Of a stretch of DNA of 56,882 bases, positions 1,867 through 56,768 are shown one piece after another; positions within the stretch are counted from its first letter, which is position 1, and every line of letters starts with the position of its first letter. The translations under genes and the position numbers were made by a program. The notes under the pieces were generated by a model. The model had not been told where the DNA came from and searched no databases. It was given only the letters and a program-made list of their open reading frames with translations. Location of the stretch: the IMG/VR virus record IMGVR_UViG_3300007514_000698, positions 1 through 56,882 of that record, one strand, 5' to 3'. The stretch comes from a virus (Duplodnaviria; Caudoviricetes).

Positions 1867-2720
1867 TTTTGCTTGATTTTTCAAATATAATAATCGGTAG
1901 TATTATGATTGCACATAAAACTAGCGATCAAGATACGGTGTCCGAAGATTTCATTCGACATTTGGTATTGAATAGTATCAGAAATTATCGTGTGAAGTAT
2001 CGTGCAAAATATGGAGAAATTGTCATTTGTACCGATTTCTTATCAAGCTGGAGAAAAGATGAATTTCCGTATTATAAAGCAAATCGGAAGAAAGTGCGTG
2101 AAAAACAGCAAACTCAAGATGGTATGGATTGGAAGGAACTATTTTCCATCATTAATCAGATCATTGAGGAAATAGATGAGTATTTTCCATATAAGGTGAT
2201 TTCTGTACCTCATGCTGAGGGAGATGATATTATCGCTGTTTTGAGTAAATATATTGATGAAAAGAGTATAATTATCAGTTCTGATAAGGATTTTTCGCAA
2301 TTACAGAAGTTTAAAACGATAAAACAATACTCTCCTATACAAAAAAAGATGATTACTACGTCTGACCCTTATAAATACCTCAAAGAACATATTATTAGAG
2401 GTGATAAAGGAGATGGTATTCCGAACATTCTTTCAGAGGATGCTTGCATAGTTGAGGGTGTTAGACAGAAACCAATATCTAAGAAAAAGGTAGCAGTTTG
2501 GATGAATGAACCTGATATGATAAATACTGATCCTAAGTGGAAAAGGAATCAAAAGTTGATTGATTTTGAGTATATTCCCAAAGATATTGTTGATGCGATT
2601 ATGAGAGAATACACTAAGACTAAAGATAAAGGGAATGGATTACCTGGCCGATTTACCTCATACTTTGTTAAGAACAAATTGAATTATTTAATGGAACATA
2701 AGGGGGATTTTATTCTATGA
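1863..2720 (+). CDS. rnh: T4-type RNase H / 5'-3' flap exonuclease
   Basis: MILLDFS, YKANR, EGDDII, SSDKDF, GDKGDGIPN motifs. Confidence 0.93.
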   Translation: MILLDFSNIIIGSIMIAHKTSDQDTVSEDFIRHLVLNSIRNYRVKYRAKYGEIVICTDFLSSWRKDEFPYYKANRKKVREKQQTQDGMDWKELFSIINQIIEEIDEYFPYKVISVPHAEGDDIIAVLSKYIDEKSIIISSDKDFSQLQKFKTIKQYSPIQKKMITTSDPYKYLKEHIIRGDKGDGIPNILSEDACIVEGVRQKPISKKKVAVWMNEPDMINTDPKWKRNQKLIDFEYIPKDIVDAIMREYTKTKDKGNGLPGRFTSYFVKNKLNYLMEHKGDFIL

Positions 2721-3151
2721 CTGAATACATGAGTGAGATATTTGCGAGAATTAATAATGCAAAGAGTCGAAAACAGAAAAAAGAAATATTGGAATCGGTT
2801 GCGGATAATAATATTTTCAGATTTATATTACAAGGTACATTTGACCCTAGTATAGAATGGAATATTACAAAGTTACCGAAGTACACACCTAGTAATGATA
2901 AACCGATTGATCTACATGAGTTGAATTTGAATGAGTCTGTTCCTAAATGTTCTATATTTGTTAAAGGACATAAACGGTCAGAAAATATAAGTGAGTCAAA
3001 AACTAAAGAATTAGTAATACAGATATTAGAGACAATGCATGAGGACGAATCACTAATTTTTAGTGGTATGTTAAAAAAGAAAATCAAATGTAAAGGATTA
3101 ACGGAAAAACTAGTTCTAGAGGTTTTCCCTGACTTATATAGAAAGGTATGA
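2717..3151 (+). CDS. conserved T4-like hypothetical protein (often downstream of rnh)
   Basis: FDPSIEW...IQILETMHEDE...KGLT...FP pattern; synteny. Confidence 0.6.
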   Translation: MTEYMSEIFARINNAKSRKQKKEILESVADNNIFRFILQGTFDPSIEWNITKLPKYTPSNDKPIDLHELNLNESVPKCSIFVKGHKRSENISESKTKELVIQILETMHEDESLIFSGMLKKKIKCKGLTEKLVLEVFPDLYRKV

Positions 3152-3154
3152 GTA

Positions 3155-3457
3155 ATGGACATTCAAACTGTATTGAACATTCAAATTTCTAAAAGAAAGA
3201 AAACAAAGAAAAATGCAAATGTTCTTGAAGGTTTCAAACAGAAATATATAAAAGTCGAGCTTGAAGATAATGGTGTAGATCATGTCTTTGATTTAAAATG
3301 GAATGGTTTTATGTATGAAGGACAATTCCTTGATATGGTTATGACTTGTGATTATAAAGTTGAAAGAGACTTTTCCGCAGTTAAGACTAAACAAGGTAGA
3401 ATTGAATCGGGTGTTCCAGTAGTTCTGGAAAGAAAGAAATCGGGATACCCTAAATAA
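3155..3457 (+). CDS. hypothetical protein
   Basis: ORF in operon context. Confidence 0.5.
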   Translation: MDIQTVLNIQISKRKKTKKNANVLEGFKQKYIKVELEDNGVDHVFDLKWNGFMYEGQFLDMVMTCDYKVERDFSAVKTKQGRIESGVPVVLERKKSGYPK

Positions 3458-3473
3458 CTCTATAGGGGGGGAT

Positions 3474-3872
3474 ATGACAAAAGATAATATTGTAATTCGT
3501 ACCCTGAGAGAAAACCTACATAAAAAAGAATATATAGAAACTACTAAACATCTTGTTACAAGATGGCATAACATTTTAAATCGGGAAGTATTTAATCACA
3601 GAATACATCCTTTTAAACATATAGAGATTAAAAGAAAACAAGGTTGTCATGCAGAACATATCGGGGAAACAGATGACCGTGATTATCTTTTCGGAACATT
3701 ATCTATCGCAGACCGATTTGAAAACAAATCTTACTTTATCTACACACTTGCACATGAAATGGTGCATCAATGGCAATGGATGCATTTATACAAAACAGAT
3801 CATGGGAGTACGTTTATGAAGTGGAAAAGTAAGTTAGAGAAATTCGAGATACCATTGGGGGTAAGTATATAA
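3474..3872 (+). CDS. SprT-like zinc metalloprotease
   Basis: TLAHEMVH (HExxH) followed by HGSTF. Confidence 0.85.
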   Translation: MTKDNIVIRTLRENLHKKEYIETTKHLVTRWHNILNREVFNHRIHPFKHIEIKRKQGCHAEHIGETDDRDYLFGTLSIADRFENKSYFIYTLAHEMVHQWQWMHLYKTDHGSTFMKWKSKLEKFEIPLGVSI

Positions 3873-4135
3873 TGCCTTTATACGATTATGAGTGTCAACT
3901 ATGTGAACATTCTTTTGAAGAATTCCGAACTATTGCAGAGATGGATATTCCTTTGGAGAATCCTTGTCCTGATTGTAAAAAGGGAGAAGTTAAAAGAATT
4001 ATAGGTTCTACCCGATTATCCGATCCTACATTATTAGAATCGTCTAAGGGTAGGGTTAAACCAACTTCCGAATTTAGGGAAGTGATGACTAGGATAAAGA
4101 AAAATCATCCTTCATCAAACTTTGAGGTAAGATAA
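3872..4135 (+). CDS. FmdB-family zinc-ribbon protein
   Basis: MPLYDYECQLC...CPDC. Confidence 0.85.
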   Translation: MPLYDYECQLCEHSFEEFRTIAEMDIPLENPCPDCKKGEVKRIIGSTRLSDPTLLESSKGRVKPTSEFREVMTRIKKNHPSSNFEVR

Positions 4136-4137
4136 AG

Positions 4138-4473
4138 ATGAAAAAACTGATATTTATCGGCTTGTGTTTATTATTTTTACTAGGTAATAAACCAACTACA
4201 GCCAAGCAACATGAGACAACAGTTCCATTATCCGAGATTTTGTTATATTGTAACACACCTGATTTTATCAAGGAAATGGCGGAAAACGATTATATGTTGG
4301 GATTAGCTGCAAGTGGTGTCGTTAATGACGACAGACATAGAACTTTACTATCTATGGAAATCCTAATGAATCCTAATAATAAACAATGGGCTATTATTTT
4401 TAATTACGCAAAGGGTAATTTATCTTGCATAATCGGGGGTAATAATATAAAGTTGTTCAAGCCCAAAACCTAA
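4138..4473 (+). CDS. secreted hypothetical protein
   Basis: MKK plus hydrophobic signal peptide; Cys residues that could form a disulfide. Confidence 0.55.
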   Translation: MKKLIFIGLCLLFLLGNKPTTAKQHETTVPLSEILLYCNTPDFIKEMAENDYMLGLAASGVVNDDRHRTLLSMEILMNPNNKQWAIIFNYAKGNLSCIIGGNNIKLFKPKT

Positions 4474-4541
4474 AACATAAAGAAGCCTCGTTTGCAAAGT
4501 ACGATCAAGGAAATGCAAGCTGAGATTTAAAGGAGCTTAGA

Positions 4542-5651: not shown

Positions 5652-6358
5652 TGAATAAAAAAGTGAAGAAGAAATTTCATCATTTAAACGATATTAATGA
5701 AAATGGATATGAACCATCTATCAGAGATGAGATAGATGGAAAGAGGGTGTATATCACACCAGCTGGTGATACATACCCATCTATAACCTCAATCCTCGGC
5801 AGTCAGTCAAAGCCGGGGATTGGGGAATGGAGAAAAAGAGTTGGTGCAATAGAAGCAAATAGAATTATACAAGATTCCAGTAAATTAGGAACTGCGGTAC
5901 ATGATCTTTGCGAGAGGTACTTATATAATAATCTCCAACCTACCTTCCAACCAGACCATCCCGAAGCGATTGAGGTGTTTAATCGTCTTAGGTTCAAATT
6001 ATCAAATATTCAAAACATATATGGGTTAGAACTTCCTTTGCATAGTGATATGTTAAAAGTTGCTGGAACTGCGGATTGCGTTGCAGAATATAACGGTGTT
6101 CTTTCAGTCATTGATTTCAAAACTTCACGCAAGTCCAAGAGAGAAGATTGGATTGAAGATTATTATATACAAACCATGTTTTATGCAGCTGCATTTTTTG
6201 AAATGACAGGTGCATTACCAGAACAAGTTGTAATATTAATTGCGGTTCGGGACTCAACTGAAGTTCAAGTTTTTACTAAACCAATTCGAGAAATTGATAC
6301 TTATATGGACAAGCTTTTAACTATTATGAAAGCAAATCCACAAGTTTTACAGCAATAG
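5651..6358 (+). CDS. PD-(D/E)XK (Cas4/RecB-like) phage exonuclease
   Basis: YPSITSIL, GTAVH, AGTADC, IDFKTS motifs. Confidence 0.85.
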   Translation: MNKKVKKKFHHLNDINENGYEPSIRDEIDGKRVYITPAGDTYPSITSILGSQSKPGIGEWRKRVGAIEANRIIQDSSKLGTAVHDLCERYLYNNLQPTFQPDHPEAIEVFNRLRFKLSNIQNIYGLELPLHSDMLKVAGTADCVAEYNGVLSVIDFKTSRKSKREDWIEDYYIQTMFYAAAFFEMTGALPEQVVILIAVRDSTEVQVFTKPIREIDTYMDKLLTIMKANPQVLQQ

Positions 6359-6362
6359 TTCC

Positions 6363-6391: not shown

Positions 6392-6397
6392 ATATTG

Positions 6398-7516
6398 ATG
6401 ATGATACTTGACAAAAAAGATTCTATTGATGTTGCGTTGAAAATAATTGATTATTTCAAGGACTTCAAACGTATTGATGATTATTTTCGTGAACGGAAAA
6501 TAGAGAGAGTTAAAGACATTCCTCTACCTCTGCCTGGTATGGGTAGTATTGAGGATGAAATGTTTCAAGATTATACAATGCATCCAATGGAGATGAACTT
6601 CCAAGTATGTCAAATTCCTTTAATCAATTTCGATACCATGTTGGAAAAGACCGCATCTTTTTCACCAGACGAAAATCCTGGCAAAACATTAAAACTAGTA
6701 GTAAAGGAAACCAACACTAATACAGTCGTTGGTTTTATTCGTTTTGGTTCACCTTTAATTAATTCTAAACCACGCAACGATTTTCTTGGTGGTGTACCTG
6801 ATCTGGATATATTTAACAAACGTGCGATAATGGGATTTAATATTGTTCCAGTACAACCATTTGGATTTAATTATCTAGGGGGTAAGTTACTTGCATCTAT
6901 TTGTTGTTCCCATGCATCTAGAAAAATGTTAAATAAGAAATACGATACAGAGTTTTGTTTGTTTGAAACTACATCTTTATATGGAAACATAAAGGGTGGA
7001 AGTATGTATGATGGTATGAAACCTTATTTAAGATATAAGGGTGATACTGAATCAAAGTTCCTATTGACGTTAGGTGAGGAAATATACAAAGAGTTGAAGG
7101 ATTGGTTTACTGATAGGAATGATGGAGAGGAATTAATACATAAGGGAGCATCTAGTAGAAAATTGAAGATGCAAACTAAAATGGTTGGTATTGTGAAATC
7201 TTCACTAAAGAAACACGATACTAAAGCATATGATATGTTTGTTAAATGCATGGAAGATGCAACTGGTGTTACTACACAAAAAAGATTTTATATGAGTGAG
7301 TATGGTTATCGTAATGTAAAGGATGTTTTGTTAGGTAAGACAGATAAGTTAGAGGTATCTGATAATTTTGAGAAGTATGAATTCGAGAATGTGATTAAGT
7401 GGTGGAAGAAATATGCAACTAAAAGATATGATAAGTTAGTTAAAGAGAATAGGTTGCGTACTAAGTTAGAAGTTTGGAATTCAAAAACCATGAAGGAGAT
7501 TGATATAATAAGATGA
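6398..7516 (+). CDS. DUF4338 / Druantia DruA-like protein
   Basis: PFGFNYLGGKLLA and ETTSLYG resemble DruA-family motifs (recalled, not searched). Confidence 0.55.
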   Translation: MMILDKKDSIDVALKIIDYFKDFKRIDDYFRERKIERVKDIPLPLPGMGSIEDEMFQDYTMHPMEMNFQVCQIPLINFDTMLEKTASFSPDENPGKTLKLVVKETNTNTVVGFIRFGSPLINSKPRNDFLGGVPDLDIFNKRAIMGFNIVPVQPFGFNYLGGKLLASICCSHASRKMLNKKYDTEFCLFETTSLYGNIKGGSMYDGMKPYLRYKGDTESKFLLTLGEEIYKELKDWFTDRNDGEELIHKGASSRKLKMQTKMVGIVKSSLKKHDTKAYDMFVKCMEDATGVTTQKRFYMSEYGYRNVKDVLLGKTDKLEVSDNFEKYEFENVIKWWKKYATKRYDKLVKENRLRTKLEVWNSKTMKEIDIIR

Positions 7517-8058
7517 AACAAGTAAATAAAAAACAAATTAATGAGTGGGGTGGTGATTTTTCTGATAGAAAGAATAACTTTGATGATAGTCCTGATGTTA
7601 GGGCATTTATTAAACATACTCTAAATGATACGAAATTGCAACAATATCTATTAAATTACATACCAGATGGTATAGCTTGTAAATGGCAATATCATCCAGA
7701 CGATAAATATGGAATTGATGTTGCGTTGGTAGATGAAACAGGTAAAAAACATTTACTTATTGATTTAGAAAGATGGAAACAATGGGATGATGAATGGCCT
7801 GATAAGTATAAGTATATCTCTTTTCTTGCAAGAAAAAGTCATTTCTTAGAAGAAACTGTACCATTCCTTATGGTATTCATGTCGAATAGACTTAATAAAC
7901 TTCTCATAGTGGATAAAGAATCAATAAAAAAATATAAGATAGTTGATAAGGATTTTGTGAAATGGGGTAAAAAGGATAAGGTAAGAAAGTTGGAATTTAA
8001 TGAAGGTAATTTATTTGGAACTAATACTACTGATCTAGAAAGAAATCTTTTCGGATGA
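7513..8058 (+). CDS. hypothetical protein, possible restriction-endonuclease-like fold
   Basis: YGIDVALVD...LIDLER could be a D...(D/E)xx catalytic pattern. Confidence 0.4.
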   Translation: MKQVNKKQINEWGGDFSDRKNNFDDSPDVRAFIKHTLNDTKLQQYLLNYIPDGIACKWQYHPDDKYGIDVALVDETGKKHLLIDLERWKQWDDEWPDKYKYISFLARKSHFLEETVPFLMVFMSNRLNKLLIVDKESIKKYKIVDKDFVKWGKKDKVRKLEFNEGNLFGTNTTDLERNLFG

Positions 8059-9038
8059 AAATTACTATTGCAAGATTACGTTCAAACGTAAAATATAATG
8101 GGCCATTAGAAACCGTATTGGATAGTTTTTTTGAGAACTATGTAAGATGGATGAATAACAATCCACAATATGAATATGATACTTATAATGTTTCCTTTTA
8201 TAGTGATGATAGACCCAAGAGAACTCCCGAATCAATTAAAGATGCAGATGTAATAGTAATCCCTAGTGATTCAGAATTTCGTTATCATGGGGAATTGCAA
8301 ATGAATCCAAAAGACCTTGCGAAGTCTGAATCTCATATAGATAATATAAGACCATATTTTGAAGGTAAGAAGGTTATTATGTGGAGATCGGATAGAGGTG
8401 ATACCGAAGAATTATATAGGACAGAAACTTTAAAGGGTGTTGATTTAGATTCATTTCATACTATTGATGAAATAGATTTCTCAGGAAATATTCATGGTAT
8501 GAAATATCATTTTATACAGACCCTAACAAACCCTCTTGCAGATATGATGGGTAATGAAAAAACTATTGATTTTGCGTATTGGGGTAGAATGAAACACGGA
8601 CACGATAGAGAAAAAACTATTCGTAAAATTTATAGGGATAAAGATATTTCCACAGTATTAGTTGGTGGATTTCCTTCTGGTGTAAAGAGACAGTCTGCAT
8701 GGATTAAAGATTGGAAACAATTATATCCAATGTTGAAACCTGCTAGATGTACTTTGTGTTTTAATTGGTTAGACCCAAAAGCTACTACCTCTAGGTATCC
8801 CGAAGCTTTATCTATTGGTATGGTGCCGTTTGTTTGGAGAGATTATGATAGCAATAATACATATAACATTGATTCATGGCAAAGAGTAAATACCTTTGAG
8901 GAATTTAAGGATAAGGTCATGTCTTTGGATGATTCAAAGGTTGACGAGTATAGAGAGAATTATAAGAAAGTTTTACTTTCAGAGGATCAATATTATGAAA
9001 AGTTTAGTGAAATGATGGATGGATTTTTAAATGATTGA
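8055..9038 (+). CDS. T4 beta-glucosyltransferase-like (GT-B) DNA glycosyltransferase
   Basis: KTIDFAYWGR...DREK and TSRYPEALS...DYD...RVNTFEEFKDKV align by eye with T4 beta-GT segments (KTLDVIYGG...QRES; TLRVWET...VNNRAELIDRV). Confidence 0.65.
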   Translation: MKITIARLRSNVKYNGPLETVLDSFFENYVRWMNNNPQYEYDTYNVSFYSDDRPKRTPESIKDADVIVIPSDSEFRYHGELQMNPKDLAKSESHIDNIRPYFEGKKVIMWRSDRGDTEELYRTETLKGVDLDSFHTIDEIDFSGNIHGMKYHFIQTLTNPLADMMGNEKTIDFAYWGRMKHGHDREKTIRKIYRDKDISTVLVGGFPSGVKRQSAWIKDWKQLYPMLKPARCTLCFNWLDPKATTSRYPEALSIGMVPFVWRDYDSNNTYNIDSWQRVNTFEEFKDKVMSLDDSKVDEYRENYKKVLLSEDQYYEKFSEMMDGFLND

Positions 9039-9810
9039 TAGAATTTATATTCCAACTTTAGGTAGAAGTCATAATCAAATTACATTTGACAATATGACAA
9101 AGAACGCACAAGAAATAACTCGACTTGTGGTACAACCTAAAGAACAAGATTTATATCCAAATTATCCAATAATTGTTTTACCTGACAATGATATTGGAAT
9201 TACTGCAACTAGACGTTGGATATATAATTACGCAAGATGTCAAAAATATGGTGTTTTTGATGATGATCTTAAATTTATTGAAAGAACACCTAATGGGGAG
9301 AAATCTAAGAAACCAGTAGATTCGGATGGTTGGGATTACCTTATAAATACTACAAGTGATTGGTTAGATGATTTCCCTTTTTCTGGATTTCGTCAAGGAA
9401 ATTTGCCACCTACAGGAGTTGAGTATATAGATTCTGCTGCTGTTAATTGTGGTTTCTTTTTCAATGATAATTTATTACCAAGTGATGAAGAACTTGATTG
9501 GTCATTACCTGTATGTGAAGATATACATATGGTTTTACAGTTCTTTAAAATGGGTTTCAATAATCGTGTATGGGATCGGTTTGGGTATATAAGTAAAATA
9601 TTAGTAGAGGGTGGATGTAATGAATGGAGAACTTTAGAACTTATTAATGATACACACGCAAAACTTATTGAGATGTACCCTAATTATGTTTCATGGAATG
9701 GGATTAGAGAAAACGTAATGGGTGGTGATTTTAAAAAGATTAAGATAAAATGGAAAAAGATGTTTACTGATAATCAAGGTTCTACATTAGAGAATTTTAT
9801 AGGGGAATAG
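9031..9810 (+). CDS. GT-A glycosyltransferase (TET-associated / beta-alpha-glucosyltransferase-like)
   Basis: IYIPTLGR, FDDDL (DxD), CEDIHMVLQ, GGC motifs. Confidence 0.75.
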   Translation: MIDRIYIPTLGRSHNQITFDNMTKNAQEITRLVVQPKEQDLYPNYPIIVLPDNDIGITATRRWIYNYARCQKYGVFDDDLKFIERTPNGEKSKKPVDSDGWDYLINTTSDWLDDFPFSGFRQGNLPPTGVEYIDSAAVNCGFFFNDNLLPSDEELDWSLPVCEDIHMVLQFFKMGFNNRVWDRFGYISKILVEGGCNEWRTLELINDTHAKLIEMYPNYVSWNGIRENVMGGDFKKIKIKWKKMFTDNQGSTLENFIGE

Positions 9811-24785: not shown

Positions 24786-27201
24786 ATCTTTGTTGTGGTG
24801 ATAATCCCTTAAACTCGTTATTGTCTGCACTTTTTATTCCCGAATCAATTTTTACATCACTTGTACTGAAGGAGTAACTATCTTGCGAACCATTATTATT
24901 CATATAAACATTACCCCCTTGTTTGCCCGCAAATTGATAATCAGGTAGTACAGGGGCGATATTCATCCCTCTTTGTTTTGAGTATGCACCTTGTAATAAT
25001 GTAAGATTTTCAACAGCTCTTTTTCCAACATCCATAAAATAATCACTAGGCCCATCACCTTTAGTATTCCATAAAACACCCATATTAAGATTATACCCCG
25101 GCCCACTATCATTTCCATCTAAGATTGCTTTCTTTAAACCTGGCCAGTTGCCTTGTGTATAAAAGCTAGAACCCATATTGTATGCCATATCTGTTAATGC
25201 AACTTTCGCAGAACCAGTTAAACCTCTCCAATTATCTTCACCTATCCACTTCTTGGCCATTGCTTGAAAGAATGGCCATTCAAGTCTCATTAATGCTCGA
25301 CCTTCTGTTTCGCTTATTCCTCTTTTACCGTCATATAATTCTTTTAAGGTTCTATCGGTGATTCCAACAAATTTTAATTGGTCTGCGGCACCATCTTTAT
25401 CTAAATTGAAACCATAACCAATACTCTTACCTATTGATCCATCTTGTCGTTTATCGTCATAAGAGAATGTTCTAAATTGTTCATAACCCATAGTATTTTT
25501 AATACCAAGAAATATATCATCACCTACGACTGTTTTAAAATCATCTTTGAGTGCTTTACCAATCGATCCTTCACCTAAAACATTAGCAACTTTTCTAGTG
25601 GATTCCCCTAGTGCAGCCTTGATGTCAAGAAAATCTTCTCCGATTTTTGGTTGATCTGTTTTACTAATAAATGCTACATTCTTTTTTAAGATTTCTAGAT
25701 TTTTCTTTGCTTTCTGTAAATCCTTTTCTGCTTTATTTAATGTTGATTGATCTTCATCAGGATCAAACAATTTTCCTTTACCTAATTTCTTCCCTTCAAA
25801 TTGGTTGCCTCCTGGGCCAGACATTTGTTTCCATAGTTTTAAATCTTTTACTCGTTTTTCTAAATTAATTGCCTTCTCCTCTGCCTCTTGAATCATTTTT
25901 TGATTACCTTCATCATAATTAAATGCTCCACGAGGCGCCTTTCTTTTCCATCCTAAAAATTCGGCACCTTTCGGGTATTTATCCATAATCCAATTATGTA
26001 TTGAATCTGTATAACTCAAAAAGGTATGCGCCATCAACTGCAAAGTTTCATCTACTCCTCTTGTTACTTCATGTCTGTAGTGCCAAGCGAGTGCGGTCAG
26101 ACCGACAGCAATACCGATAGGACTCAAAGCAAGTCTTACTGCACCTATAAGTAACATGATACTACCACGAAGTAATGCACCGACTTTTGTAACAAAAGAT
26201 TTTGTTGACATACCAAATATTTTTGAGATAAGAAACATCCCAACAATGGTATTAAGAAATGATGTGAAACCCTCTGTAAGTGTGGGGCCAAACCAACTGG
26301 TAAACACCTTATTAATATCTTTTGTTAATGTTCCATCATATCCAAATATAGCAGTTGCAACCCAATTTGCCATGTTTTTAAAAAAGTCAAGTGCAAACTC
26401 TCCAATACTTTCTATTGATTTTGTAATACTCCACATTTTTGCAAAAAAATCACCTTCTTGCCAACCTTCAAAGTCTTTCGTTAAATTATCCATTAACTTT
26501 TTTAGATCATCCATTGTGTCCATGAAAAAATTGAAAGTTGCTGGGAGAGTATACTTCTTGAACCAATCAACAAAGGGTGTCATAAACTCAATCATTTTAA
26601 AGAATAATTCTTTCATATTGGTAAGAAACTTTTTTGTATTTTCCCATAGTTTCTTTATATCACCAACACTTAGATTTTTACCGAGTGCAAAAGCAGTCAT
26701 AATTCCTAAGAACCACATAAAATATGTTTTGATTTTATCCCAAACTTTTTTCATACCATCCCATATATTATCTCGTTTTTGTATCATCCAATCTTTCAAT
26801 CCCATCCAACCTGACGAAAACTTTTCACCCAATTTTTCAAACATCTTTTTGAGTTCTTTTTTAGTCTCTGATTCTTTTTCTACTGTTTTCATTCCAAGTT
26901 GTGCATTAATATCACTTGTTTTTTTAGTTTCTTCTACAATTTCTTTAGTTTGTTCTTTCGTTTGTTTTTCAATATCTTTAGTTTGTTTATCTGTTTTTTC
27001 TTTTAGATCATCTCGTAACCCTTGTAGTTCTTTAACAACTGCGGCCAATCCTTCTTTATTATCTTTTGCTTGCATGAGTCCGATTGCCCAACCATCTGCT
27101 CCTTTGGACATATCTAAGCCACCAGAAGATTTTTGTTGTCCTTCTTCTCCTACTCCTCTTGGATCGGGTGGTGTTCCCCCTTTACTGGGTGGTTTTTTCA
27201 T
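24784..27201 (-). CDS. tape-measure/gp29-like virion protein with C-terminal lysozyme-like domain
   Basis: Long helical, Trp/Phe-periodic region with hydrophobic segments; E-x8-D...SIGYGFNL and ALTDMAYNMG GH24-like motifs; follows gp26/gp51. Confidence 0.7.
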   Translation of the reverse strand: MKKPPSKGGTPPDPRGVGEEGQQKSSGGLDMSKGADGWAIGLMQAKDNKEGLAAVVKELQGLRDDLKEKTDKQTKDIEKQTKEQTKEIVEETKKTSDINAQLGMKTVEKESETKKELKKMFEKLGEKFSSGWMGLKDWMIQKRDNIWDGMKKVWDKIKTYFMWFLGIMTAFALGKNLSVGDIKKLWENTKKFLTNMKELFFKMIEFMTPFVDWFKKYTLPATFNFFMDTMDDLKKLMDNLTKDFEGWQEGDFFAKMWSITKSIESIGEFALDFFKNMANWVATAIFGYDGTLTKDINKVFTSWFGPTLTEGFTSFLNTIVGMFLISKIFGMSTKSFVTKVGALLRGSIMLLIGAVRLALSPIGIAVGLTALAWHYRHEVTRGVDETLQLMAHTFLSYTDSIHNWIMDKYPKGAEFLGWKRKAPRGAFNYDEGNQKMIQEAEEKAINLEKRVKDLKLWKQMSGPGGNQFEGKKLGKGKLFDPDEDQSTLNKAEKDLQKAKKNLEILKKNVAFISKTDQPKIGEDFLDIKAALGESTRKVANVLGEGSIGKALKDDFKTVVGDDIFLGIKNTMGYEQFRTFSYDDKRQDGSIGKSIGYGFNLDKDGAADQLKFVGITDRTLKELYDGKRGISETEGRALMRLEWPFFQAMAKKWIGEDNWRGLTGSAKVALTDMAYNMGSSFYTQGNWPGLKKAILDGNDSGPGYNLNMGVLWNTKGDGPSDYFMDVGKRAVENLTLLQGAYSKQRGMNIAPVLPDYQFAGKQGGNVYMNNNGSQDSYSFSTSDVKIDSGIKSADNNEFKGLSPQQR

Positions 27202-33454: not shown

Positions 33455-34852
33455 ATGATGAATATATGGCAAGGTGTAGTTGAAGATAGATATGACCCAT
33501 TGAAGTTGGGTAGATGTCGAGTGCGTATTCTTGGATTGCATACTACAAATAAGATAGATGGTGAAGGAATACCAACAGAACATTTACCGTGGGCAACTCC
33601 AAGTCAACCGATAACATCTGCAGCTATGAATGGTATTGGTACGACACCAATGGGGCCTGTTGAAGGTACTTGGGTGTTTGGTTTCTTTCGTGATGGTGGT
33701 AATGAACAAGAACCAGTTATGATTGGAACATTCGGGGGTATTCCCGAAAAGGATTATAAACATGATCCCCAAAAAGGTTTCAATGATCCTTTTGGTACTT
33801 ATCCATTAACTACTCATCTTGGAGAACCTGATACAAATAGAGCAGCAAGAGGTGGTGGTGCAATACCAGTACCGTTGCCTGGTTCTTTAGATACGCCTGG
33901 TTCAGAGGATTCACCACACTTAGTTAAGAAACGGAAGGTAAGGAACAAAGGAATTCCTACTGCTGTTGCAGGGGATATTTCAGCAGCTATTGCAAATACT
34001 GGTAATAGTGGATTGTATGGTTTTTCGCCTTGGAACGAACCTAATCCTAGATATGGTGGGGTAAGTGATAGTGATACTGAATATAATATATCAGGTGGTA
34101 TCAGTTCTCTTTATCCATTCAATCATGTTCGCATGAGTGAATCGGGTCATGTTGAAGAATGGGATGACACACCATCTGCGGAGAGGATGCACCGTTATCA
34201 CAAGTCAGGTACGTTTGAAGAAATACAACAGGACGGAACAAAGATTGTTAAGGTAGTGGGTAATGATTATGAAATCATCTTGGGAGATAATGATGTTTAC
34301 ATAAATGGAGTTTGTAATGTTACTATTCAAGGTGATTGTCGTATGTTATATCAAGGTGATCTTGTCCAAGAGGTTTATGGTGATTATCATTTGAACGTAC
34401 AGGGTGATATGAGAACAAAGATAACTGGAAATTGTGCAACTGAAATGTTAGAAGATAGAAAAACTATCGTCAATGGTTTTGATGATCTATTGGTTGGTGA
34501 TGATGCATTATTGAATGTTGGTGGGAATCAACAGATAGGAATAGGTGGAGATATATCAGAGGTAGTTTCGGGAGATGTACAGAATGTCTATCTTGGTGGT
34601 TGTACGGAAACAACTGGTCTTGGTGGACATCGCCTGTTAAGTGCTGGAAGTATAGATATTTCTGCATTGATGAATTTAGGTTTATCATCTATTCTTAATT
34701 ACAATCGAACTACTATGGGATTATCAACAGAAACCACAACATTATTGCATAGTGAAATATGTCTAGGTGGTAGAGCTGAAGCAACTACTGGTTTTAGTAA
34801 TGTATTCGCAGGCACCTATATTAACAGATCAGGAACAATTAATTTGAACTAA
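33455..34852 (+). CDS. gp5: baseplate hub spike gp5 (OB-fold plus beta-helix, no lysozyme domain)
   Basis: GVVEDRYDPLKLGRCRVR, LPWA, GTWVFGFF, YPFNHV..SESGHVEEWDDTP, VxG repeats. Confidence 0.92.
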   Translation: MMNIWQGVVEDRYDPLKLGRCRVRILGLHTTNKIDGEGIPTEHLPWATPSQPITSAAMNGIGTTPMGPVEGTWVFGFFRDGGNEQEPVMIGTFGGIPEKDYKHDPQKGFNDPFGTYPLTTHLGEPDTNRAARGGGAIPVPLPGSLDTPGSEDSPHLVKKRKVRNKGIPTAVAGDISAAIANTGNSGLYGFSPWNEPNPRYGGVSDSDTEYNISGGISSLYPFNHVRMSESGHVEEWDDTPSAERMHRYHKSGTFEEIQQDGTKIVKVVGNDYEIILGDNDVYINGVCNVTIQGDCRMLYQGDLVQEVYGDYHLNVQGDMRTKITGNCATEMLEDRKTIVNGFDDLLVGDDALLNVGGNQQIGIGGDISEVVSGDVQNVYLGGCTETTGLGGHRLLSAGSIDISALMNLGLSSILNYNRTTMGLSTETTTLLHSEICLGGRAEATTGFSNVFAGTYINRSGTINLN

Positions 34853-42225: not shown

Positions 42226-42681
42226 ATGTTGGAGATTCGAGAAAATTTTATCTCACTATATGATTGTGAGATGATGATAGCATATTACGAAGATAACAAG
42301 GACAAGTCATATCATTGGCAACCCAATGACACAAGACCCCTAGACATAATTCACAAGTTCCCCGAACTGGATGCGAAGATCATGTCATGGGTTACTGAGT
42401 TGGATGATGCATATTTGTATATTGCAACAAATGAGATAGTGAAGTGGGTTACAGGGAATAAGATGCATTTGCATTTAGACGCACCTTGCGATTTTTGGTC
42501 TGCACTTATATATCTGAATGATGATTTCACAGGTGGAGTAACGATACTGGAAGATGGAACACAAATCATCCCAAAGACAGGGAAGTGTGTGTTATTTAGT
42601 GGTAACAAAATTAAACATGGAGTAACTATGGTTCAAGGAATGAGATACACTCTACCTTACTGGTTAAGGAGATACGCATAA
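42226..42681 (+). CDS. prolyl-4-hydroxylase-like 2OG-Fe(II) oxygenase
   Basis: HLD, IYLNDDFTGG, HGV, RYTLPYW. Confidence 0.88.
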   Translation: MLEIRENFISLYDCEMMIAYYEDNKDKSYHWQPNDTRPLDIIHKFPELDAKIMSWVTELDDAYLYIATNEIVKWVTGNKMHLHLDAPCDFWSALIYLNDDFTGGVTILEDGTQIIPKTGKCVLFSGNKIKHGVTMVQGMRYTLPYWLRRYA

Positions 42682-50280: not shown

Positions 50281-51015
50281 TCATGGACACCCCCATACGT
50301 TAAGTGTTATTAACCAGAATTTCCTACCCCCCGAAACATGAGGATTATCCCAACCATCTATAACGTATGGTTCTGGACACGGATTCCCTTCTTTATTCAT
50401 TGGTAATTTAAATCTGTATTTGCTTTTCTTTGTATAGATTAGATTATTGACATTTAAATCTTCATCATCATATCTAGTATATTCATAAGGACTTAATATA
50501 TTTTCTATACTTGATATAGATGGCAAACTACCTACCCCATTCATAGGGCCGTGATATATGTGATGAGGATGATAATCTTTTATTTGAAAACAAATGTCGT
50601 GGGAGAATTTATTTACAGCAGTTTCAAAAGCAACATATTGTTTAGAACTGTTAATCGTATTAACTAAGTCTCTTTTCCAGTTCCTTAAATTATAAGACAA
50701 TCCAAAGTGAATCACTAGGTCATATTGTTCTTTGAATTCCCAATGACCATCTTGGTCGAGAAGTGTTATGTTGGCATCGGGGTCTTTATCTAAAATAACT
50801 TCTAAACATTCAGCACGAGCATCGGTCATGGTAACGTCTGCACCTAGGCTCTTAAAGTATAATCCTACATTTCCAAATCCAGCACCTAGTTCTAAAATTG
50901 ACTTTCCTTCAAACCAATCTTTACCTAGAATGTTCTCTAGTTTTTTAACTCTTACTTTTCGCCACTCATTAAACCATCCGCCAAAGACTTCATTTTCTTC
51001 ATCTAGTATATTCAA
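50281..51015 (-). CDS. class I SAM-dependent methyltransferase
   Basis: SILELGAGFG, TDAR, YDLVIHFGLSY. Confidence 0.85.
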   Translation of the reverse strand: MNILDEENEVFGGWFNEWRKVRVKKLENILGKDWFEGKSILELGAGFGNVGLYFKSLGADVTMTDARAECLEVILDKDPDANITLLDQDGHWEFKEQYDLVIHFGLSYNLRNWKRDLVNTINSSKQYVAFETAVNKFSHDICFQIKDYHPHHIYHGPMNGVGSLPSISSIENILSPYEYTRYDDEDLNVNNLIYTKKSKYRFKLPMNKEGNPCPEPYVIDGWDNPHVSGGRKFWLITLNVWGCP

Positions 51016-52382: not shown

Positions 52383-52450
52383 TACTTGACCCAGCCGACA
52401 AGCATAAGCTAACATAAATCAAAATCGAATGTAAGGAAAAAGTTAATAAA

Positions 52451-52864: not shown

Positions 52865-54693
52865 TGCCAATATCAAATAAACTACGGATTACAGATTTAG
52901 ATTTTGAACAGATTAAAATAAACTTGAAGGAATATCTGAGAGCTCAAACTGAATTTGAAGATTATGATTTTGAGGGAAGTGGTCTAGCGATCCTTATTGA
53001 CCTTCTTGCATACAATACTCATTACATGGGTTACTATGCTAATATGCTTGCGAATGAAATGTTTTTGGATTCTTCCGCATTAAGAGAGTCTATCCTATCT
53101 CACGCAAAACACCTCAACGTATTTCCAACATCCAGACGTTCCGCATCTGCAATGCTAAACATGACCTTCTCTCCAAGTGGTGCTCCAACCGCTTTACTAA
53201 TCGACAAAGGAACAAGATTCACAACAAGTATTAATGGAATTAGATATGGATTTCTGACTCCAACATCTACTACTGTTCCGAGATCAGCAACTGGAACTTA
53301 CTCTGTTACAAATTTAAAAATAGTCGAGGGTCAGATATTACGAAGATCGTATGTTGTAAATGGTGCCGATCCAGAACAAAGATTTATACTTCCAAATACA
53401 AATGTAGATACCACAACTATTACTGTAACGGTACAAAAATCAGCAAGTGATACTACGTTAACGACATATAAAGATGCAACCAGTTTGGATGTTAATACTG
53501 TTAAGTCATCAGACAACGTATTCTTTTTAGAAGAAATAGAAGGAAGTACATACGAACTTTTCTTTGGTGATGGTTCTGTTGGTACACAGGTTGAGGATGG
53601 TAATATTATTTTTATTGAATATATTACAACTTTAGGAGCTGCAGCGAATCAAGCAAATGTATTTACTGCTGTTGGTACTGTTGCATCTTTAACATCTAAT
53701 CAATATATTTTAGAAACTTCTGTTGCGGCAACTGGTGGGAGTGAGAAACAATCAGATCGTTCTCTTAAATTTCAAGCACCTAAACTTTATTCCGCACAAA
53801 GACGTGCTACAACAAAAGAAGATTATAAAGCAATTATATTAGAACAAAGACCTGACATAGAATCTATAACTGTTTATGGTGGTGAGGATGCAGACCCAGT
53901 ACAGTATGGAAAAGTTTTTGTTGCTGTCAAACCATCTGGTAATAATACATTTAGTACAACAACAAAGGATGAAATCAAAACTACTATTCTTGATAAGGTG
54001 AATGTTGTTACAGTACAACCTGAGATAATTGATCCTATATTCTTTTATCTTCTAATAGATGCTACGGTAAACTATGATCCTGTTAAACTCTTAACTGATG
54101 CGGCATCACTTGAAATAAATATTGATACTTCTATCCAAAGTTATTTCCAAACAGATTTGGAAAAGTTCGATCAGAAGTTTAGATACTCACAGTTAGTTCA
54201 AGACATTGATCTTACGGATAGTGCTGTTAGGAATAATAAAACGAATATAAGATACCAACAAAGAATTGTACCAAATAATTTTAGTGTTGCTCAAACATTT
54301 ACGCAATACTTTACTAATGCATTGAAGAAGGGAAGTTTTGTTTCAACTTCATTTACAGGTGCTGATGGTAATACATATTCTTTGGTTGATGATTCTTCAG
54401 GAAATATTAAAGCTGCAAGAACAACAAGCGGTGTAGTAGATAGTCCTGCTGTATATTTAACACAACCAGACGGTACAAAGAATCAGGGAACGATTGATTA
54501 CGATACTGGAAAAGTAGAATTGAATGGATTGATTATTGCAACGATTTCGGATGGAACACAGACGGTTCGATTAACCGTTACACCCGAAGTAAACAATTCT
54601 GATATTATACCATTGAGGGAACAGGTTTTAACTTATGATGTTACAGATACAGAATCTATTAAAATAACCATGAACTCTGAGACAATAATCTAA
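52864..54693 (+). CDS. gp6: baseplate wedge subunit gp6
   Basis: LDFEQIK, DYDFEGS, LAYNTHY, NEMFLDS, FGDG, AQRRATT.EDY, YGKVF. Confidence 0.95.
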   Translation: MPISNKLRITDLDFEQIKINLKEYLRAQTEFEDYDFEGSGLAILIDLLAYNTHYMGYYANMLANEMFLDSSALRESILSHAKHLNVFPTSRRSASAMLNMTFSPSGAPTALLIDKGTRFTTSINGIRYGFLTPTSTTVPRSATGTYSVTNLKIVEGQILRRSYVVNGADPEQRFILPNTNVDTTTITVTVQKSASDTTLTTYKDATSLDVNTVKSSDNVFFLEEIEGSTYELFFGDGSVGTQVEDGNIIFIEYITTLGAAANQANVFTAVGTVASLTSNQYILETSVAATGGSEKQSDRSLKFQAPKLYSAQRRATTKEDYKAIILEQRPDIESITVYGGEDADPVQYGKVFVAVKPSGNNTFSTTTKDEIKTTILDKVNVVTVQPEIIDPIFFYLLIDATVNYDPVKLLTDAASLEINIDTSIQSYFQTDLEKFDQKFRYSQLVQDIDLTDSAVRNNKTNIRYQQRIVPNNFSVAQTFTQYFTNALKKGSFVSTSFTGADGNTYSLVDDSSGNIKAARTTSGVVDSPAVYLTQPDGTKNQGTIDYDTGKVELNGLIIATISDGTQTVRLTVTPEVNNSDIIPLREQVLTYDVTDTESIKITMNSETII

Positions 54694-56768
54694 TGGCAAA
54701 GGTAAATCCGAATCAACCATTTCATCCTACGTTTGATGAACGGATAAGTGTCAAGGTAGAGAATCAGCTTCCTGCTTTTATTACACAGGATCATCCTACC
54801 TTTATATCGTTTATGCAAGCGTATTATGAGTATATGGAACAAAAGGGGAAACCCTATGAGATCATTGGTAATTTAAATAATTACGCAGACCTCGGAAAAA
54901 CTACGGATGAATTTTTAAAGTATTTTAAAAGTCAGTTCGCAGTAGATATTCCAGAGATTGCATTTAACTCTGCTAACAAACCTCTTGCATTAAAACGATT
55001 AAGAGATTTCTATCGTGCAAAGGGTAGTGAGAAATCATTTGATTTTTTCTTTAGGTTATTATATAATCAGGAAATTGAATTGTACTATCCCTCTGTTGAT
55101 ATACTTAGAACCTCGGATGGTAGATATGATAAAAGTCAAATTGTTAGGTGTGTTGATGCGAGTGGTACAGACCAAGTATTTAATTTAATTGGAAAGAAAA
55201 TTACTGGATCGGTTTCTGGTGCAACTGCTCTTGTTGAATCTATATTAAAAGAGAGTGTTGGTTCTACATTGGTTTCAACAATTTATCTTTCTGGAACGAT
55301 TGGAATTTTTGTAGGTGGTGAAACAATAACAGATGGTAATATTACTTTTGATCTTGGAAAGATGTTAACGGAAGTAGAAGTAGTTGTTGCTGGAAATAAT
55401 TATCCTCTTGGGGCTACAGTTCCCATTAGTGGTGGTGGTGTCGTAAACTCTGGTGCTGTTTGTAAGATTGCAGAATTGAGTGAAGGATCAATACTGACTG
55501 TTACGATTGCTGATGGTGGAAGTGGTTATATTGTCGGTGATAAGTTTACAGTTGACGATACAAATGTTCTATCTATTAATGGTAGAAGCGCTAGTGTTAT
55601 TGTTAAAGCGGTAGATGGTTCTGGTGCAGTTACCGAAGTTGAATTGGAAAATACTGGAAGGGGTTATACTGGTATACCAGTTCTTACTGGTGGGAGTGGT
55701 GTTGGTTTTATTCCTACTATAGTTGGTTGGGATATTGGTGGTATTAAAAAGATAAGTATAGATAACAATGGTTTTGGATTTACCTCAGAACCAGATTTAG
55801 ACTTAACAGGACTTGGAGATGGAAGTGCATCTGCATTTGCTAGTGTAGGTGCTTATGTTGGAAATTATAATGTCGGGTTTACTGGTGATAAAGGATTTTT
55901 ATCTGCTAATAAATATATCCAAGATAGTAGTTATTATCAACTATATTCTTATGTAATTACTTCTGGCGAAACAATCGACAAATGGCGTAATTTTGTAAAG
56001 AGAGCAATACATCCTGCTGGTTTAGCATTGTTTGGTAGGTATCAATTAATATCAAACTTAAAAACTAATTTACGAATTACTGGAATACCACAGACATCTA
56101 AATATAAAATTATTTTCCATGATGGTTCGATTGAACCGCCAAAAATATTAAATTTGAAAATAGATTCATGCGAAGGTGTAACGTGGGTTGTTGATGGTGA
56201 AGATTATGATTTAATAGCTAATGCTGTAACTGAAACCGAGGATGATGGTTTACTAACTGGAATTATAGATGATGGTGAAGATTTTGAAACCATCACCGAG
56301 TTTGTTGGTGTTTATATTGAACCAACTAAATGTCAGATTTATGAGCAAGACTTAGGTATTCAGAAATTAGTTGATGGGGGATTTGATGATTATCTTTTTG
56401 TCGATATAGTTGCTACGAGGATGGGTAATTTTGGATTGATAGATGAAGCAACTACTAATCCACAAGACTATGGTTGGCTTGGACAAACCATGTCTTTTGA
56501 ATCACAGTTGAGGTTAGGCCCAATCAAACGAAGTTTAGATAGACTGAAATTTAATATGCAAGGTGGATATAGTCAGAAGTGGGGTGTTGTGGTAAATGGG
56601 TGGCAACAATCAGGAACATCTATTGAGTCTTTTAAGAATGACAAGGTTTCAGATTATATATTCTTTGCTGGAAGTAAACATAAGAAAGTAACAAACGCTA
56701 CAATAACACAGTTCGTAACGGCAGATGAGGCAAGTTGGCCTGCAAATACTACTCTGCCATTTTCATAA
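54693..56768 (+). CDS. gp7: baseplate wedge initiator (gp7-like)
   Basis: QLP.FI, FYRAKGSEKSF, IQDS.YYQLYSY, HPAG; follows gp6. Confidence 0.78.
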   Translation: MAKVNPNQPFHPTFDERISVKVENQLPAFITQDHPTFISFMQAYYEYMEQKGKPYEIIGNLNNYADLGKTTDEFLKYFKSQFAVDIPEIAFNSANKPLALKRLRDFYRAKGSEKSFDFFFRLLYNQEIELYYPSVDILRTSDGRYDKSQIVRCVDASGTDQVFNLIGKKITGSVSGATALVESILKESVGSTLVSTIYLSGTIGIFVGGETITDGNITFDLGKMLTEVEVVVAGNNYPLGATVPISGGGVVNSGAVCKIAELSEGSILTVTIADGGSGYIVGDKFTVDDTNVLSINGRSASVIVKAVDGSGAVTEVELENTGRGYTGIPVLTGGSGVGFIPTIVGWDIGGIKKISIDNNGFGFTSEPDLDLTGLGDGSASAFASVGAYVGNYNVGFTGDKGFLSANKYIQDSSYYQLYSYVITSGETIDKWRNFVKRAIHPAGLALFGRYQLISNLKTNLRITGIPQTSKYKIIFHDGSIEPPKILNLKIDSCEGVTWVVDGEDYDLIANAVTETEDDGLLTGIIDDGEDFETITEFVGVYIEPTKCQIYEQDLGIQKLVDGGFDDYLFVDIVATRMGNFGLIDEATTNPQDYGWLGQTMSFESQLRLGPIKRSLDRLKFNMQGGYSQKWGVVVNGWQQSGTSIESFKNDKVSDYIFFAGSKHKKVTNATITQFVTADEASWPANTTLPFS

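Follow-up and report, generated by a model that had tools for sequence, protein, structure and literature searches.

Restriction-type sites persist at GC[C/T] steps in a fragment of a marine T4-like phage that encodes a DruA–glycosyltransferase cassette

The window and its modification cassette

The DNA analysed here, referred to as the window, is a 56,882-bp stretch that spans the whole of IMG/VR record IMGVR_UViG_3300007514_000698 (35% G+C; CheckV completeness of approximately 33%) and is a fragment of an uncultured marine T4-like myovirus. Judged by baseplate gp6, its closest relatives in culture are Melnitz, a phage of OM43 (39% identity), and two pelagiphages, HTVC008M and Mosig; megablast of 4 kb of the window against cultured phages gave no match. 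Our subjects are a compositional footprint, in which many short restriction-type words are almost absent and their surviving copies are enriched for those that contain the cytosine of a GC[C/T] step (hereafter GCY), and a cassette of putative DNA-modification genes. The cassette follows genes for RNase H, HtrA and an exonuclease, and is not in the DNA polymerase slot, which falls outside the window. The features are as follows.

1–56882, no strand: compositional footprint, from word counts against codon-preserving shuffles
6395–7516, + strand: DruA/DUF4338-family protein of 373 amino acids with a GNAT fold, the first gene of the cassette (Pfam, PHROG, Atlas clusters and AlphaFold2 (AF2) model)
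7513–8058, + strand: open reading frame (ORF) of 181 amino acids and no known family (no Pfam, PHROG or NCBIfam match)
8055–9038, + strand: GT-B glycosyltransferase resembling the T4 β- and α-glucosyltransferases (BGT and AGT) (Atlas clusters with PF09198 at 0.96–0.97)
9031–9810, + strand: GT-A glycosyltransferase of the TET-associated glycosyltransferase family (TAGT) (PF20691, E = 3.2 × 10−15, 57.1 bits, cut-off of 27.5)

The DruA-like protein matches the Pfam DruA model under the cut-off (E = 6.8 × 10−5; 22.6 bits, cut-off of 27) and PHROG 19197 with E = 1 × 10−149; its nearest Atlas clusters, at 0.97–0.98, carry PF14236 in 74–99% of members, and the DruA homologues of HTVC008M pass the PF14236 cut-off. 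Foldseek matches of its AF2 model (pLDDT of 86) are GNATs, including Mom of phage Mu (8bv8; prob 0.99, TMt 0.55). Superposition on Mom by VIA (Z of 8.2, rmsd of 4.3, 174 aligned) is tied with other GNATs at Z of 8.0–8.5. The protein is a candidate DNA-modifying enzyme that is not a methyltransferase. The 181-amino-acid ORF is kept in one related locus, L012 (82% identity, tblastn), and is missing from most related cassettes. The identity of the two glycosyltransferase genes is well established: the ten best Foldseek PDB matches of the 8055–9038 model (pLDDT of 69.5) are all T4 BGT or AGT (E of 1.7 × 10−5 to 1.1 × 10−4, TM of 0.38–0.53), and the product of 9031–9810 also matches PHROG 842, ‘beta-glucosyl-HMC-alpha-glucosyltransferase’ (E = 5 × 10−22).

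Purged words and the flanks of surviving sites

Word counts were compared with 1,000 shuffles that permute synonymous codons and so keep every protein and the codon usage. Approximately 40 words of 4–6 bases occur at no more than 35% of expectation across the window, and 18 of these are zero, among them CASTG, GTSAC, CGCG, GATATC, TGATCA, AACGTT, TCATGA, CAATTG, CTCTTC, AGTACT and AGATCT. The purge is thus general and extraordinarily strong. On the + strand there are 0 copies of GGWCC, 29 of GGSCC, 28 of CCWGG, 4 of CCGG and 0 of CGCG. The shuffles predict 28.8 ± 3.6 copies of GGWCC and 8.2 of GGSCC. CCWGG is not depleted overall (33.4 expected) but is shifted into flanked contexts: the unflanked form, HCCWGGD, occurs once against 24.6 expected, whereas copies flanked by a 5′ G or a 3′ C total 27 against 8.9. 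Nearly all of these have a single flank (26 versus 8.6; GCCWGGD 11 versus 4.3, HCCWGGC 15 versus 4.3), and the doubly flanked GCCWGGC occurs once (0.3 expected). CCGG falls to 4 copies against 42.2 expected, with none of the 34.3 expected HCCGGD copies and 4 of 7.9 expected flanked copies. The observed values for GGWCC, CCWGG and CCGG were reached in 0 of 1,000 shuffles. The exceptional CCWGG site and the CCGG sites are as follows.

25811–25815: TCCTGGG, the sole CCWGG without an internal GCY cytosine; a GCC step directly adjoins it, the coding strand reading GGC CCA GGA
5813–5816 (GCCGG), 25098, 44108 and 48003: the surviving CCGG sites, all GCCGG or CCGGC

The first-pass annotation, made by eye, had reported that GGWCC is absent, that CCWGG nearly always appears as GCCWGG or CCWGGC with TCCTGGG as the one exception, and that CCGG is found only as GCCGG or CCGGC. 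All three statements hold, since a 5′ G or 3′ C is present at 27 of 28 CCWGG and at all 4 CCGG sites, and the coordinates given there all check out. GGWCC and the unflanked forms of CCWGG and CCGG are depleted relative to the shuffles and not at the expected frequencies.

The codons at Pro-Gly pairs, which account in frame for 24 of the 28 CCWGG sites, record how the flanks are supplied. Because Pro-Gly reads CCN GGN, CCNGG is unavoidable there. Fourteen of the 27 pairs in the window follow a codon ending in G, and in only 1 of these 14 is Gly written GGC; in the other 13, Gly is GGC in 12 (Fisher P = 1 × 10−5 versus the G-preceded group; binomial P = 2 × 10−15), against a background of 60 GGC among 1,237 Gly codons. 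Likewise, three of the four surviving CCGG sites are Pro-Gly codons CCG GGN after a G. This either/or use, in which two flanks are not favoured, argues for selection of a G before or a C after the site and not for mutational bias. Gly-Pro pairs are a different matter. They are indeed written GGG- or GGC-CCN in 22 of 22 cases, although GGG and GGC together make up 205 of 1,237 Gly codons, but Gly-Pro must read GGNCC, so that avoidance of GGWCC alone forces GGSCC and the survival of GGSCC is no evidence for a shield. The earlier interpretation of the GGNCC pattern as a shield footprint is consequently not borne out; plain avoidance of GGWCC suffices.

The apparent shield is GC[C/T], not any GpC

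Copies of each purged word were sorted according to which GpC cytosines they contain on the two strands and which base lies 3′ of each, and the real sequence was compared with 200 shuffles. At the training sites, unshielded copies number 1 against 88.1 expected and shielded copies 31 against 17.2. In 37 words other than the three site types of the first-pass annotation, copies without GpC are at 36 observed against 617 expected (observed/expected (O/E) of 0.058) and copies with only GCA or GCG at 12 against 142 (0.084), whereas copies with GCC or GCT are at 61 against 105 (0.58); the GCY class thus holds 61 of 109 survivors against 28.0 expected (P = 3 × 10−15). By the base 3′ of the GpC cytosine, the O/E is 0.64 for C, 0.53 for T, 0.056 for A and 0.088 for G. 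As four of the tested words had been added by hand, the test was rerun on a rule-chosen list of 40 words, in which GC[CT] was the best of eight models (P = 6.7 × 10−11; P = 8 × 10−9 without CCGG and GGWCC), with ratios of 0.039 without GpC, 0.108 for other GpC and 0.369 for the GC[CT] shield.

One rule is common to at least 13 unrelated cores: CCWGG, CCGG, CCWWGG, CCTCC, CCCGT, CTGCAG, CTGGAG, CTGAAG, CTTAAG, GAATGC, ACCTGC, GCGC and CATCG. CTGCAG, for example, contains GCA and is absent where this is its only GpC (0 of 9.0 expected) but is at expectation with a GCT flank (4 versus 3.5).

33618–33623, 35988, 41227 and 53639: the surviving CTGCAG sites, all with a 5′ G or 3′ C that gives GCT

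Unshielded and shielded copies number 0 of 12.1 and 7 of 5.5 for CTGGAG, and 0 of 19.0 and 11 of 6.7 for CCWWGG. T follows all four surviving GAATGC copies, and ACCTGC followed by T is at 6 versus 5.7, while the class labelled A only is at 0 of 9.6. Words in which GpC takes other forms are lost: CGCG, with an internal GCG, is at 0 of 27, GTGCAC at 0 of 5.6, G-prefixed CASTG at 0 of 12.8 and G-prefixed CAATTG at 0 of 9.5. Of the GCY step, only the C always lies within the site, as the G lies outside in GCCWGG and GCTGCAG and the Y lies outside in GAATGC-T and ACCTGC-T; the marked position would therefore be the central C:G pair. There is no base preference at −1 of GCY. GCY cytosines number 863 in the window, which is 4.3% of all C, or approximately one per 66 bp.

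The proposal that unshielded restriction-type words were purged and overlapped copies tolerated is thus supported across at least 13 cores, and GpC as the protective context stands for GCC and GCT but fails for GCA and GCG, which are purged as hard as copies without GpC. We accordingly rejected any GpC as the shield. We also rejected GCC alone, given that GCT rescues CTGCAG, CTGGAG, GAATGC and ACCTGC; a HaeIII-type GGCC methylation, given that most CCWGGC survivors lack GGCC; and an RGCY (CviJI-type) motif, given that TGCC-type survivors exist and there is no preference at −1.

Relatives and controls

We collected 40 non-redundant IMG/VR loci with a DruA-like or TAGT gene (loci and genomes carry our L and G identifiers) and pooled the 24 (235 kb) that form the clade of the window, defined by a DruA identity of 67% or more or by the presence of TAGT; L031, L033, L034 and 13 loci of a group with approximately 50% DruA identity were left out. 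The rule recurs in the pool. Observed against expected copies are 4/107 unshielded and 120/45.6 shielded for CCWGG, 0/66 and 14/35 for CCGG, 18/147 and 21/24.9 for CCTCC, 14/104 and 16/16.3 for CCTGAA, and 0/32.9 and 5/12.8 for CTTAAG. GCGCA is at 0/34.6 without Y and 25/38 with Y. Neither GCG nor GCA rescues copies in the pool.

Unflanked CCWGG and GGWCC are at expectation in the negative controls HTVC008M, Mosig, G006, G007 and G008, and likewise in the group with approximately 50% DruA identity. The cultured phage Melnitz, which encodes DNA polymerase followed by a C5-methyltransferase (187 bits) and then a TET protein (44 bits), is a positive control and has the same GCY footprint as the window: in its first 50 kb, GGWCC is at 0/23, CCWGG at 0/19.7 unshielded and 18/8.2 shielded, and copies with only GCA or GCG at 1/82 (GC[CT] model, P = 7.7 × 10−16). 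Forty non-redundant contigs that bear this methyltransferase (364 kb) behave in the same way, with CCWGG at 2/124 unshielded and 90/64.5 shielded and CTGCAG at 6/40.9 and 31/22.8. Use of the 18 zero words as a fingerprint to tie the window to a methyltransferase-bearing contig gave no match (lowest O/E of 0.28 among 39 methyltransferase loci of at least 7 kb).

In L031, L033 and L034, the DruA proteins of which are approximately 69% identical, CCWGG is shielded (0 unshielded copies of 3.5–5.3 expected) and CCGG is not avoided (for example, 11/10.0), which indicates that the set of purged words varies inside the clade while the shield rule is constant. In L133–L139, a Melnitz-type methyltransferase follows an ATP-grasp gene downstream of RecA and no TET homologue was found in the locus; these loci would be a methyltransferase-only variant.

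A sparse cytosine mark as the probable explanation

We consider it probable that a sparse, sequence-specific modification at the central C:G pair of 5′-GC[C/T]-3′ shields restriction sites in this phage. The mark would cover approximately 4% of cytosines. Selection by hosts rich in type II restriction enzymes would have removed all unprotected copies of about 40 words, and a copy would be tolerated when the site contains, on one strand or the other, a GCY cytosine, at which the mark would block cleavage. At sites forced by the protein sequence, the shield would be built from synonymous codons, with the preceding codon ending in G or Gly written as the rare GGC. The mark would most likely be a 5-substituted cytosine that is glycosylated, with the two glycosyltransferases encoded at 8055–9810 completing it. 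We infer that cytosine and not the paired G carries the mark, that the mark is glycosylated and that restriction was the selective agent. What the first-pass annotation had proposed, a context-specific mark that can be read from surviving sites, is upheld in outline; its motif becomes GCY instead of GpC, GGNCC is not diagnostic, and no methyltransferase–TET writer was found in the window.

Several observations weigh against this explanation. Protection is partial and dependent on the enzyme, with a shielded O/E of 0.58, not 1; none of the 3.3 GCT-prefixed copies expected of CTCTTC is present, and no enrichment is seen for GACGC or GCAATG. A blind scan of 32 trinucleotides in the window without CCWGG ranked GCT first (P = 1.3 × 10−4) and GCC third (P = 5 × 10−3), with CCG/CGG between them, so that the signal outside CC-type sites is moderate. 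Words of the RGATCY and CGATCG types, which have GATC in common, raise TCA/TGA to the same score as GCC in the pooled relatives; flank dependence can therefore arise without a mark when several 6-mers have one core. The pool of 24 was picked after the per-locus counts of CCWGG, CCGG and GGWCC were known, and only the other words are independent in it. The footprint, from which the existence of a chemical mark would be deduced, does not distinguish C from its partner G, or C5 from N4. Lastly, profile searches of the window, which is approximately 33% of the genome, returned no match at E ≤ 1 to the C5-methyltransferase family PF00145 or to the TGT family PF01702, no match to the thymidylate-synthase-type hydroxymethylase family PF00303 (also absent from G006–G009), a single match to TET PF12851 at 10.4 bits against a cut-off of 34.9, and no CmoA-like protein among the NCBIfam matches. 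Two genes came up in these searches.

42226–42681, + strand: 2OG-Fe(II) oxygenase of 151 amino acids, one of five in the window (PF13640, E = 4.8 × 10−8; PF12851, E = 0.0096, 10.4 bits)
50281–51015, − strand: generic class-I S-adenosylmethionine methyltransferase of 244 amino acids (Methyltransf_23/16/25)

The oxygenase was rejected as a TET protein, its PF12851 score being far under the cut-off, and the methyltransferase was rejected as CmoA or a DNA methyltransferase, its NCBIfam matches being weak, generic and neither CmoA nor DNA methyltransferase.

Explanations without a cytosine mark have to account for the same counts. The flank dependence might come from longer or degenerate specificities of the host enzymes, or from many 6–7-bp enzymes that share cores, with no modification at all. 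The GATC-core artefact in the pooled relatives demonstrates that this is feasible, and GGSCC survival is explained in this way, but at least 13 unrelated cores would have to share a dependence on a G at −1 or a C at +1 that holds solely where C or T comes next. Palindromes and asymmetric, type IIS-like words (GAATGC, ACCTGC and CTGGAG) obey the rule alike, one flank suffices and two are not favoured (GCCWGGC, as above), and the rule coincides with a known enzyme specificity. A single sequence-specific mark explains one rule in so many cores far better than do 13 enzymes with one flank preference, and we regard the absence of any modification as quite improbable. Slightly more improbable still is that the footprint was inherited from an ancestor with methyltransferase and TET while the present phage is unmarked, or that GCY is marked by an enzyme of the host. 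Exchange of cassettes among close relatives would leave the pattern in place for some time; an unmarked genome, however, would leave the 27 unavoidable Pro-Gly CCNGG sites open to the enzymes that purged the other copies, and the pattern is equally sharp in DruA-type contigs with polymerases that are only 60–70% identical to one another. The least probable account, and a remote one, puts the mark on the guanine of the complementary 5′-RGC-3′, for example as a 7-deazaguanine inserted by a DpdA-type transglycosylase. The footprint identifies only the base pair, and preQ0 in phage CAjan is reportedly placed at GA and GGC motifs; against this, the window has no TGT/DpdA match, no QueC, QueD, QueE or FolE was present among its 56 ORFs scanned, and its modification genes are glycosyltransferases of the hydroxymethyl-pyrimidine type.

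Candidate writers of the mark

If GCY cytosines are marked, the writer may be other than the methyltransferase–TET pair encoded by Melnitz. The slot between DNA polymerase and MazG–RecA holds the methyltransferase–TET pair in Melnitz (MZ577097.1, 1415–9915; L098) and DruA–BGT–TAGT in L010 (4083–12300). More generally, the DruA-type slot contains DruA, the BGT-like gene and a variable glycan-tailoring set (including an FkbM methyltransferase, a GT4-like enzyme and TAGT). The two cassettes never occur together in 154 loci: a DruA or BGT-like gene lies within ±10 kb in 0 of 80 methyltransferase loci, and a methyltransferase or TET gene in 0 of 74 DruA/TAGT loci. PF00145 was found in 0 of 27 records of the clade of the window and 0 of 10 other DruA-bearing records, all of them fragments, and in 0 of 5 larger DruA-bearing records (fragments of up to 140 kb, 77% complete); TET/JBP PF12851 was likewise not found in the 27 clade records or the 5 larger ones. 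Among complete genomes, Melnitz has no DruA gene, and HTVC008M has two DruA genes and neither methyltransferase nor TET. DNA polymerases of the two types are interleaved (that of the DruA-type L005 is 89% identical to that of the methyltransferase-type L130), and the GCY footprint is kept with both cassettes. The shared slot, the lack of co-occurrence, the interleaved polymerases and the common footprint together favour a DruA–BGT cassette that is functionally equivalent to methyltransferase–TET, and the mutual exclusivity in the loci and records checked means that the writer may not be the methyltransferase–TET pair. Beyond the left end of the window, the corresponding region of the relative L074 has a ribonucleotide reductase fragment, a PDDEXK endonuclease and GAPDH, and no writer gene.

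Two accounts of the writer can be set against these data. One, which we hold tentatively as a possibility, is that the DruA-family GNAT encoded at 6395–7516, or another partner, makes a glycosylated base at GCY with the BGT-like enzyme and replaces methyltransferase–TET in the same slot. The BGT-like gene directly follows DruA in most of 64 DruA loci, Mom is among the best structural matches of the GNAT fold, and Mom is described in the accessible text of two papers as a GNAT that modifies DNA bases (PMC7261163, PMC13219725). The cassette has been swapped for methyltransferase–TET in relatives as close as L005 and L130 with the footprint retained, and DruA-bearing phages without a C5-methyltransferase show other short-motif shields (see below), so non-methyltransferase writers seem to exist in the group. 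On the other hand, such a role for DruA has no biochemical precedent and the fold match is shared with many ordinary acetyltransferases (Z of 8.0–8.5). The presence of DruA alone does not predict the GCY shield (HTVC008M and G006–G008), and the link of DruA clade to motif is confounded with phylogeny and host. It would also be a coincidence for an unrelated enzyme to copy the exact specificity of the methyltransferases, and the only acceptors known for either glycosyltransferase family are hydroxymethyl-pyrimidines.

The other account, which seems to us somewhat unlikely, is that a C5-methyltransferase and TET of the kind found in Melnitz and by Burke et al. lie in the unsequenced two thirds of the genome, and that the BGT-like and TAGT enzymes of the window glycosylate the resulting 5-hydroxymethylcytosine at GC[C/T]. 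The shield motif equals the methyltransferase specificity given in the accessible text of PMC8256090, and the footprint is the same in Melnitz and the 40 methyltransferase-bearing contigs. TAGT is by definition TET-associated, and TAGT-like genes (27–30% identity to that of the window) lie downstream of methyltransferase–TET in 5 of the 80 methyltransferase loci. The incompleteness of the window, which does not reach the polymerase slot, also leaves room for such genes. The separation of the two cassettes in all 80 and 74 loci, the absence of PF00145 from the 27 clade records and the 5 larger DruA-bearing records, the gene contents of complete Melnitz and HTVC008M, and the occupation of the whole DNA polymerase to MazG–RecA slot by DruA–BGT–TAGT in L010 all speak against it. 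Of the C5-methyltransferase–TET–glycosyltransferase system that the first-pass annotation had named, the TAGT and BGT-like glycosyltransferase genes are present in the window, and the C5-methyltransferase and TET genes were not found there.

Comparison with known systems

The closest parallel is the C5-methyltransferase–TET (5mYOX)–glycosyltransferase system, in which, according to the accessible text of Burke et al. 2021 (PMC8256090), TET-accompanying phage methyltransferases ‘mainly recognize a GpC[C/T] consensus’: clade IIa recognizes GpC[C/T] only, clade I recognizes GpC[C/T/G] but not GpCA, and clade IIb any GpC. The window shares with that system, as far as this text describes it, glycosyltransferases of the TAGT family and BGT-like type and a marine viral metagenome as the source; its footprint, read from surviving sites, fits the narrow GpC[C/T] form with GCA and GCG excluded, and its proposed mark would likewise be sparse and post-replicative. 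It differs in that searches of the window and of DruA-bearing relatives turned up neither a C5-methyltransferase nor a TET gene, and in that the glycosyltransferases stand beside a DruA-type GNAT. In the part of a preprint available to us (bioRxiv 10.1101/2023.12.21.572611), broad protection by GpC-limited marks is judged unlikely; by contrast, the codon choices in the window argue that a sparse mark does protect. M.CviPI of a chlorella virus is likewise a virus-encoded cytosine methylation at a short motif that is thought to protect against restriction (accessible text of PMC8256090), like the mark proposed here, but it methylates every GpC, whereas GCA and GCG give no protection in the window.

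The Methylophilales phage Melnitz EXVC044M (MZ577097.1), the nearest cultured phage by gp6, shares with the window not only the GCY-shield footprint but also the purged words CGCG, AACGTT, TACGTA, TCATGA, TTCGAA, GGWCC and CCGG; unlike the window, it has DNA polymerase–methyltransferase–TET and no DruA, BGT-like or TAGT gene. The accessible text of PMC9004378 states only that the Melnitz methylase may guard against restriction. The CmoA/CmoX/CmoY system, which makes 5-carboxymethylcytosine in Synechococcus phage S-B43 (PMC12783734, from its accessible text), also belongs to a T4-like marine phage and modifies cytosine C5 at a GC motif as a handle for further decoration; unlike in the window, CmoX is a homologue of C5-methyltransferases, and the motif is reported as GC without the restriction to C or T.

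T4 itself, with gp42 and α- and β-glucosyltransferases, resembles the window in the BGT-like fold and in the presence of dNMP kinase and dCMP deaminase. It differs in that no hydroxymethylase of the thymidylate synthase family was found in the window, and full replacement of cytosine, as in T4, would make a purge of CCGG, CGCG and GGWCC needless. Mom of phage Mu, a GNAT-fold enzyme of adenine N6 modification, resembles the DruA-like protein in fold and is among its best structural matches, and a cultured cyanophage homologue of the latter (52% identity) is annotated as ‘methylcarbamoylase mom’. However, the sequence identity to Mom is 12%, the Z of 8.2 is tied with acetyltransferases, and the suggested target is a C:G pair rather than adenine.

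Other shields and their implications

A blind trinucleotide scan revealed a TCC/GGA shield in HTVC008M, Mosig, G008 and G009, all of which have DruA genes and no C5-methyltransferase (stretches scanned: L094, KC465899.1 1–50000; L179, MT647606.1 50001–100000; G008, L083–L087; G009, L180–L183). In these phages, purged words that start with GA (GATC, GANTC and GATGC) survive almost only after G; in HTVC008M, shielded against unshielded copies, each observed/expected, are 24/38.5 against 0/66 for GATC, 11/13.3 against 0/57.4 for GAATC and 5/5.8 against 3/71.4 for GATGC. G008 adds GACGTC, CCCTGA and CTCTTC to the shielded words (P = 7.5 × 10−64, at least six cores). The pattern hints at a different short-motif DNA mark. 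G006 (L076–L082) and G010 (L184–L187) keep GTWAC and GTTAAC only as GGTNAC or GTNACC (P = 8.8 × 10−26 and 3 × 10−11), which weakly suggests an ACC/GGT shield; with two cores only, a methylase or an enzyme of longer specificity could explain it equally well.

A tentative possibility, which we think less likely than not, is that marine T4-like phages have a second writer that is independent of methyltransferase and TET, consisting of a Mom-like DruA GNAT and a BGT-like glycosyltransferase in the polymerase slot and acting at clade-specific three-letter motifs. If so, the motifs would be GCY in the clade of the window, TCC in HTVC008M, Mosig and G008, and ACC in G006 and G010, and each could be read from the purged sites that survive. 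The widespread DruA–BGT cassette would then be flagged as a possible DNA-writing system in some of the most abundant myoviruses in the ocean. For the window, marking of approximately 4% of cytosines would be enough for protection provided that the remaining sequence is adapted accordingly, and the codon choices would record this selection, exposed sites having been removed and rare codons spent on placing a GCY cytosine in unavoidable ones. Such a rule is a cheap read-out, from sequence alone, of the modification motif of a phage and of the restriction specificities that it has met. It predicts that native Melnitz DNA should resist enzymes that cut CCWGG, CCGG and CTGCAG. We found no paper on a GCY- or GpC-conditional purge of restriction sites in a literature search that did not cover subscription journals.

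Composition and other genes of the window

AGC/GCT is far under codon-shuffle expectation in the window (526 versus 782, z of −14), with AGCC/GGCT at 0.35, and the deficit, which AGCT avoidance alone is insufficient to explain in the window, is also present in HTVC008M, G006, G007 and G008, which makes it a trait common to the phage group. A 5-methylcytosine deamination scar was rejected as its cause, as HTVC008M and G006–G008 show equal or stronger depletion without a GCY shield; GCT depletion in these phages is tied to avoidance of AGCT and AGCC. TGCA is in excess (363 versus 302 per strand, z of 5) despite the purge of GTGCAC and CTGCAG, as is GGCC (49 versus 29).

The remaining genes of interest fall into two groups.

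T4-like genes in the window: gp5, gp6, gp25, a baseplate wedge protein, gp32, RNase H, dNMP kinase and dCMP deaminase
Auxiliary genes in the window: aldehyde dehydrogenase, five 2OG-Fe(II) oxygenases, purC and others

The left end of the window (1–60) is intergenic, with a promoter-like TTGCAA...TATAAT, and the ATG at 53, not the TTG at 2, is the probable start of the first gene.

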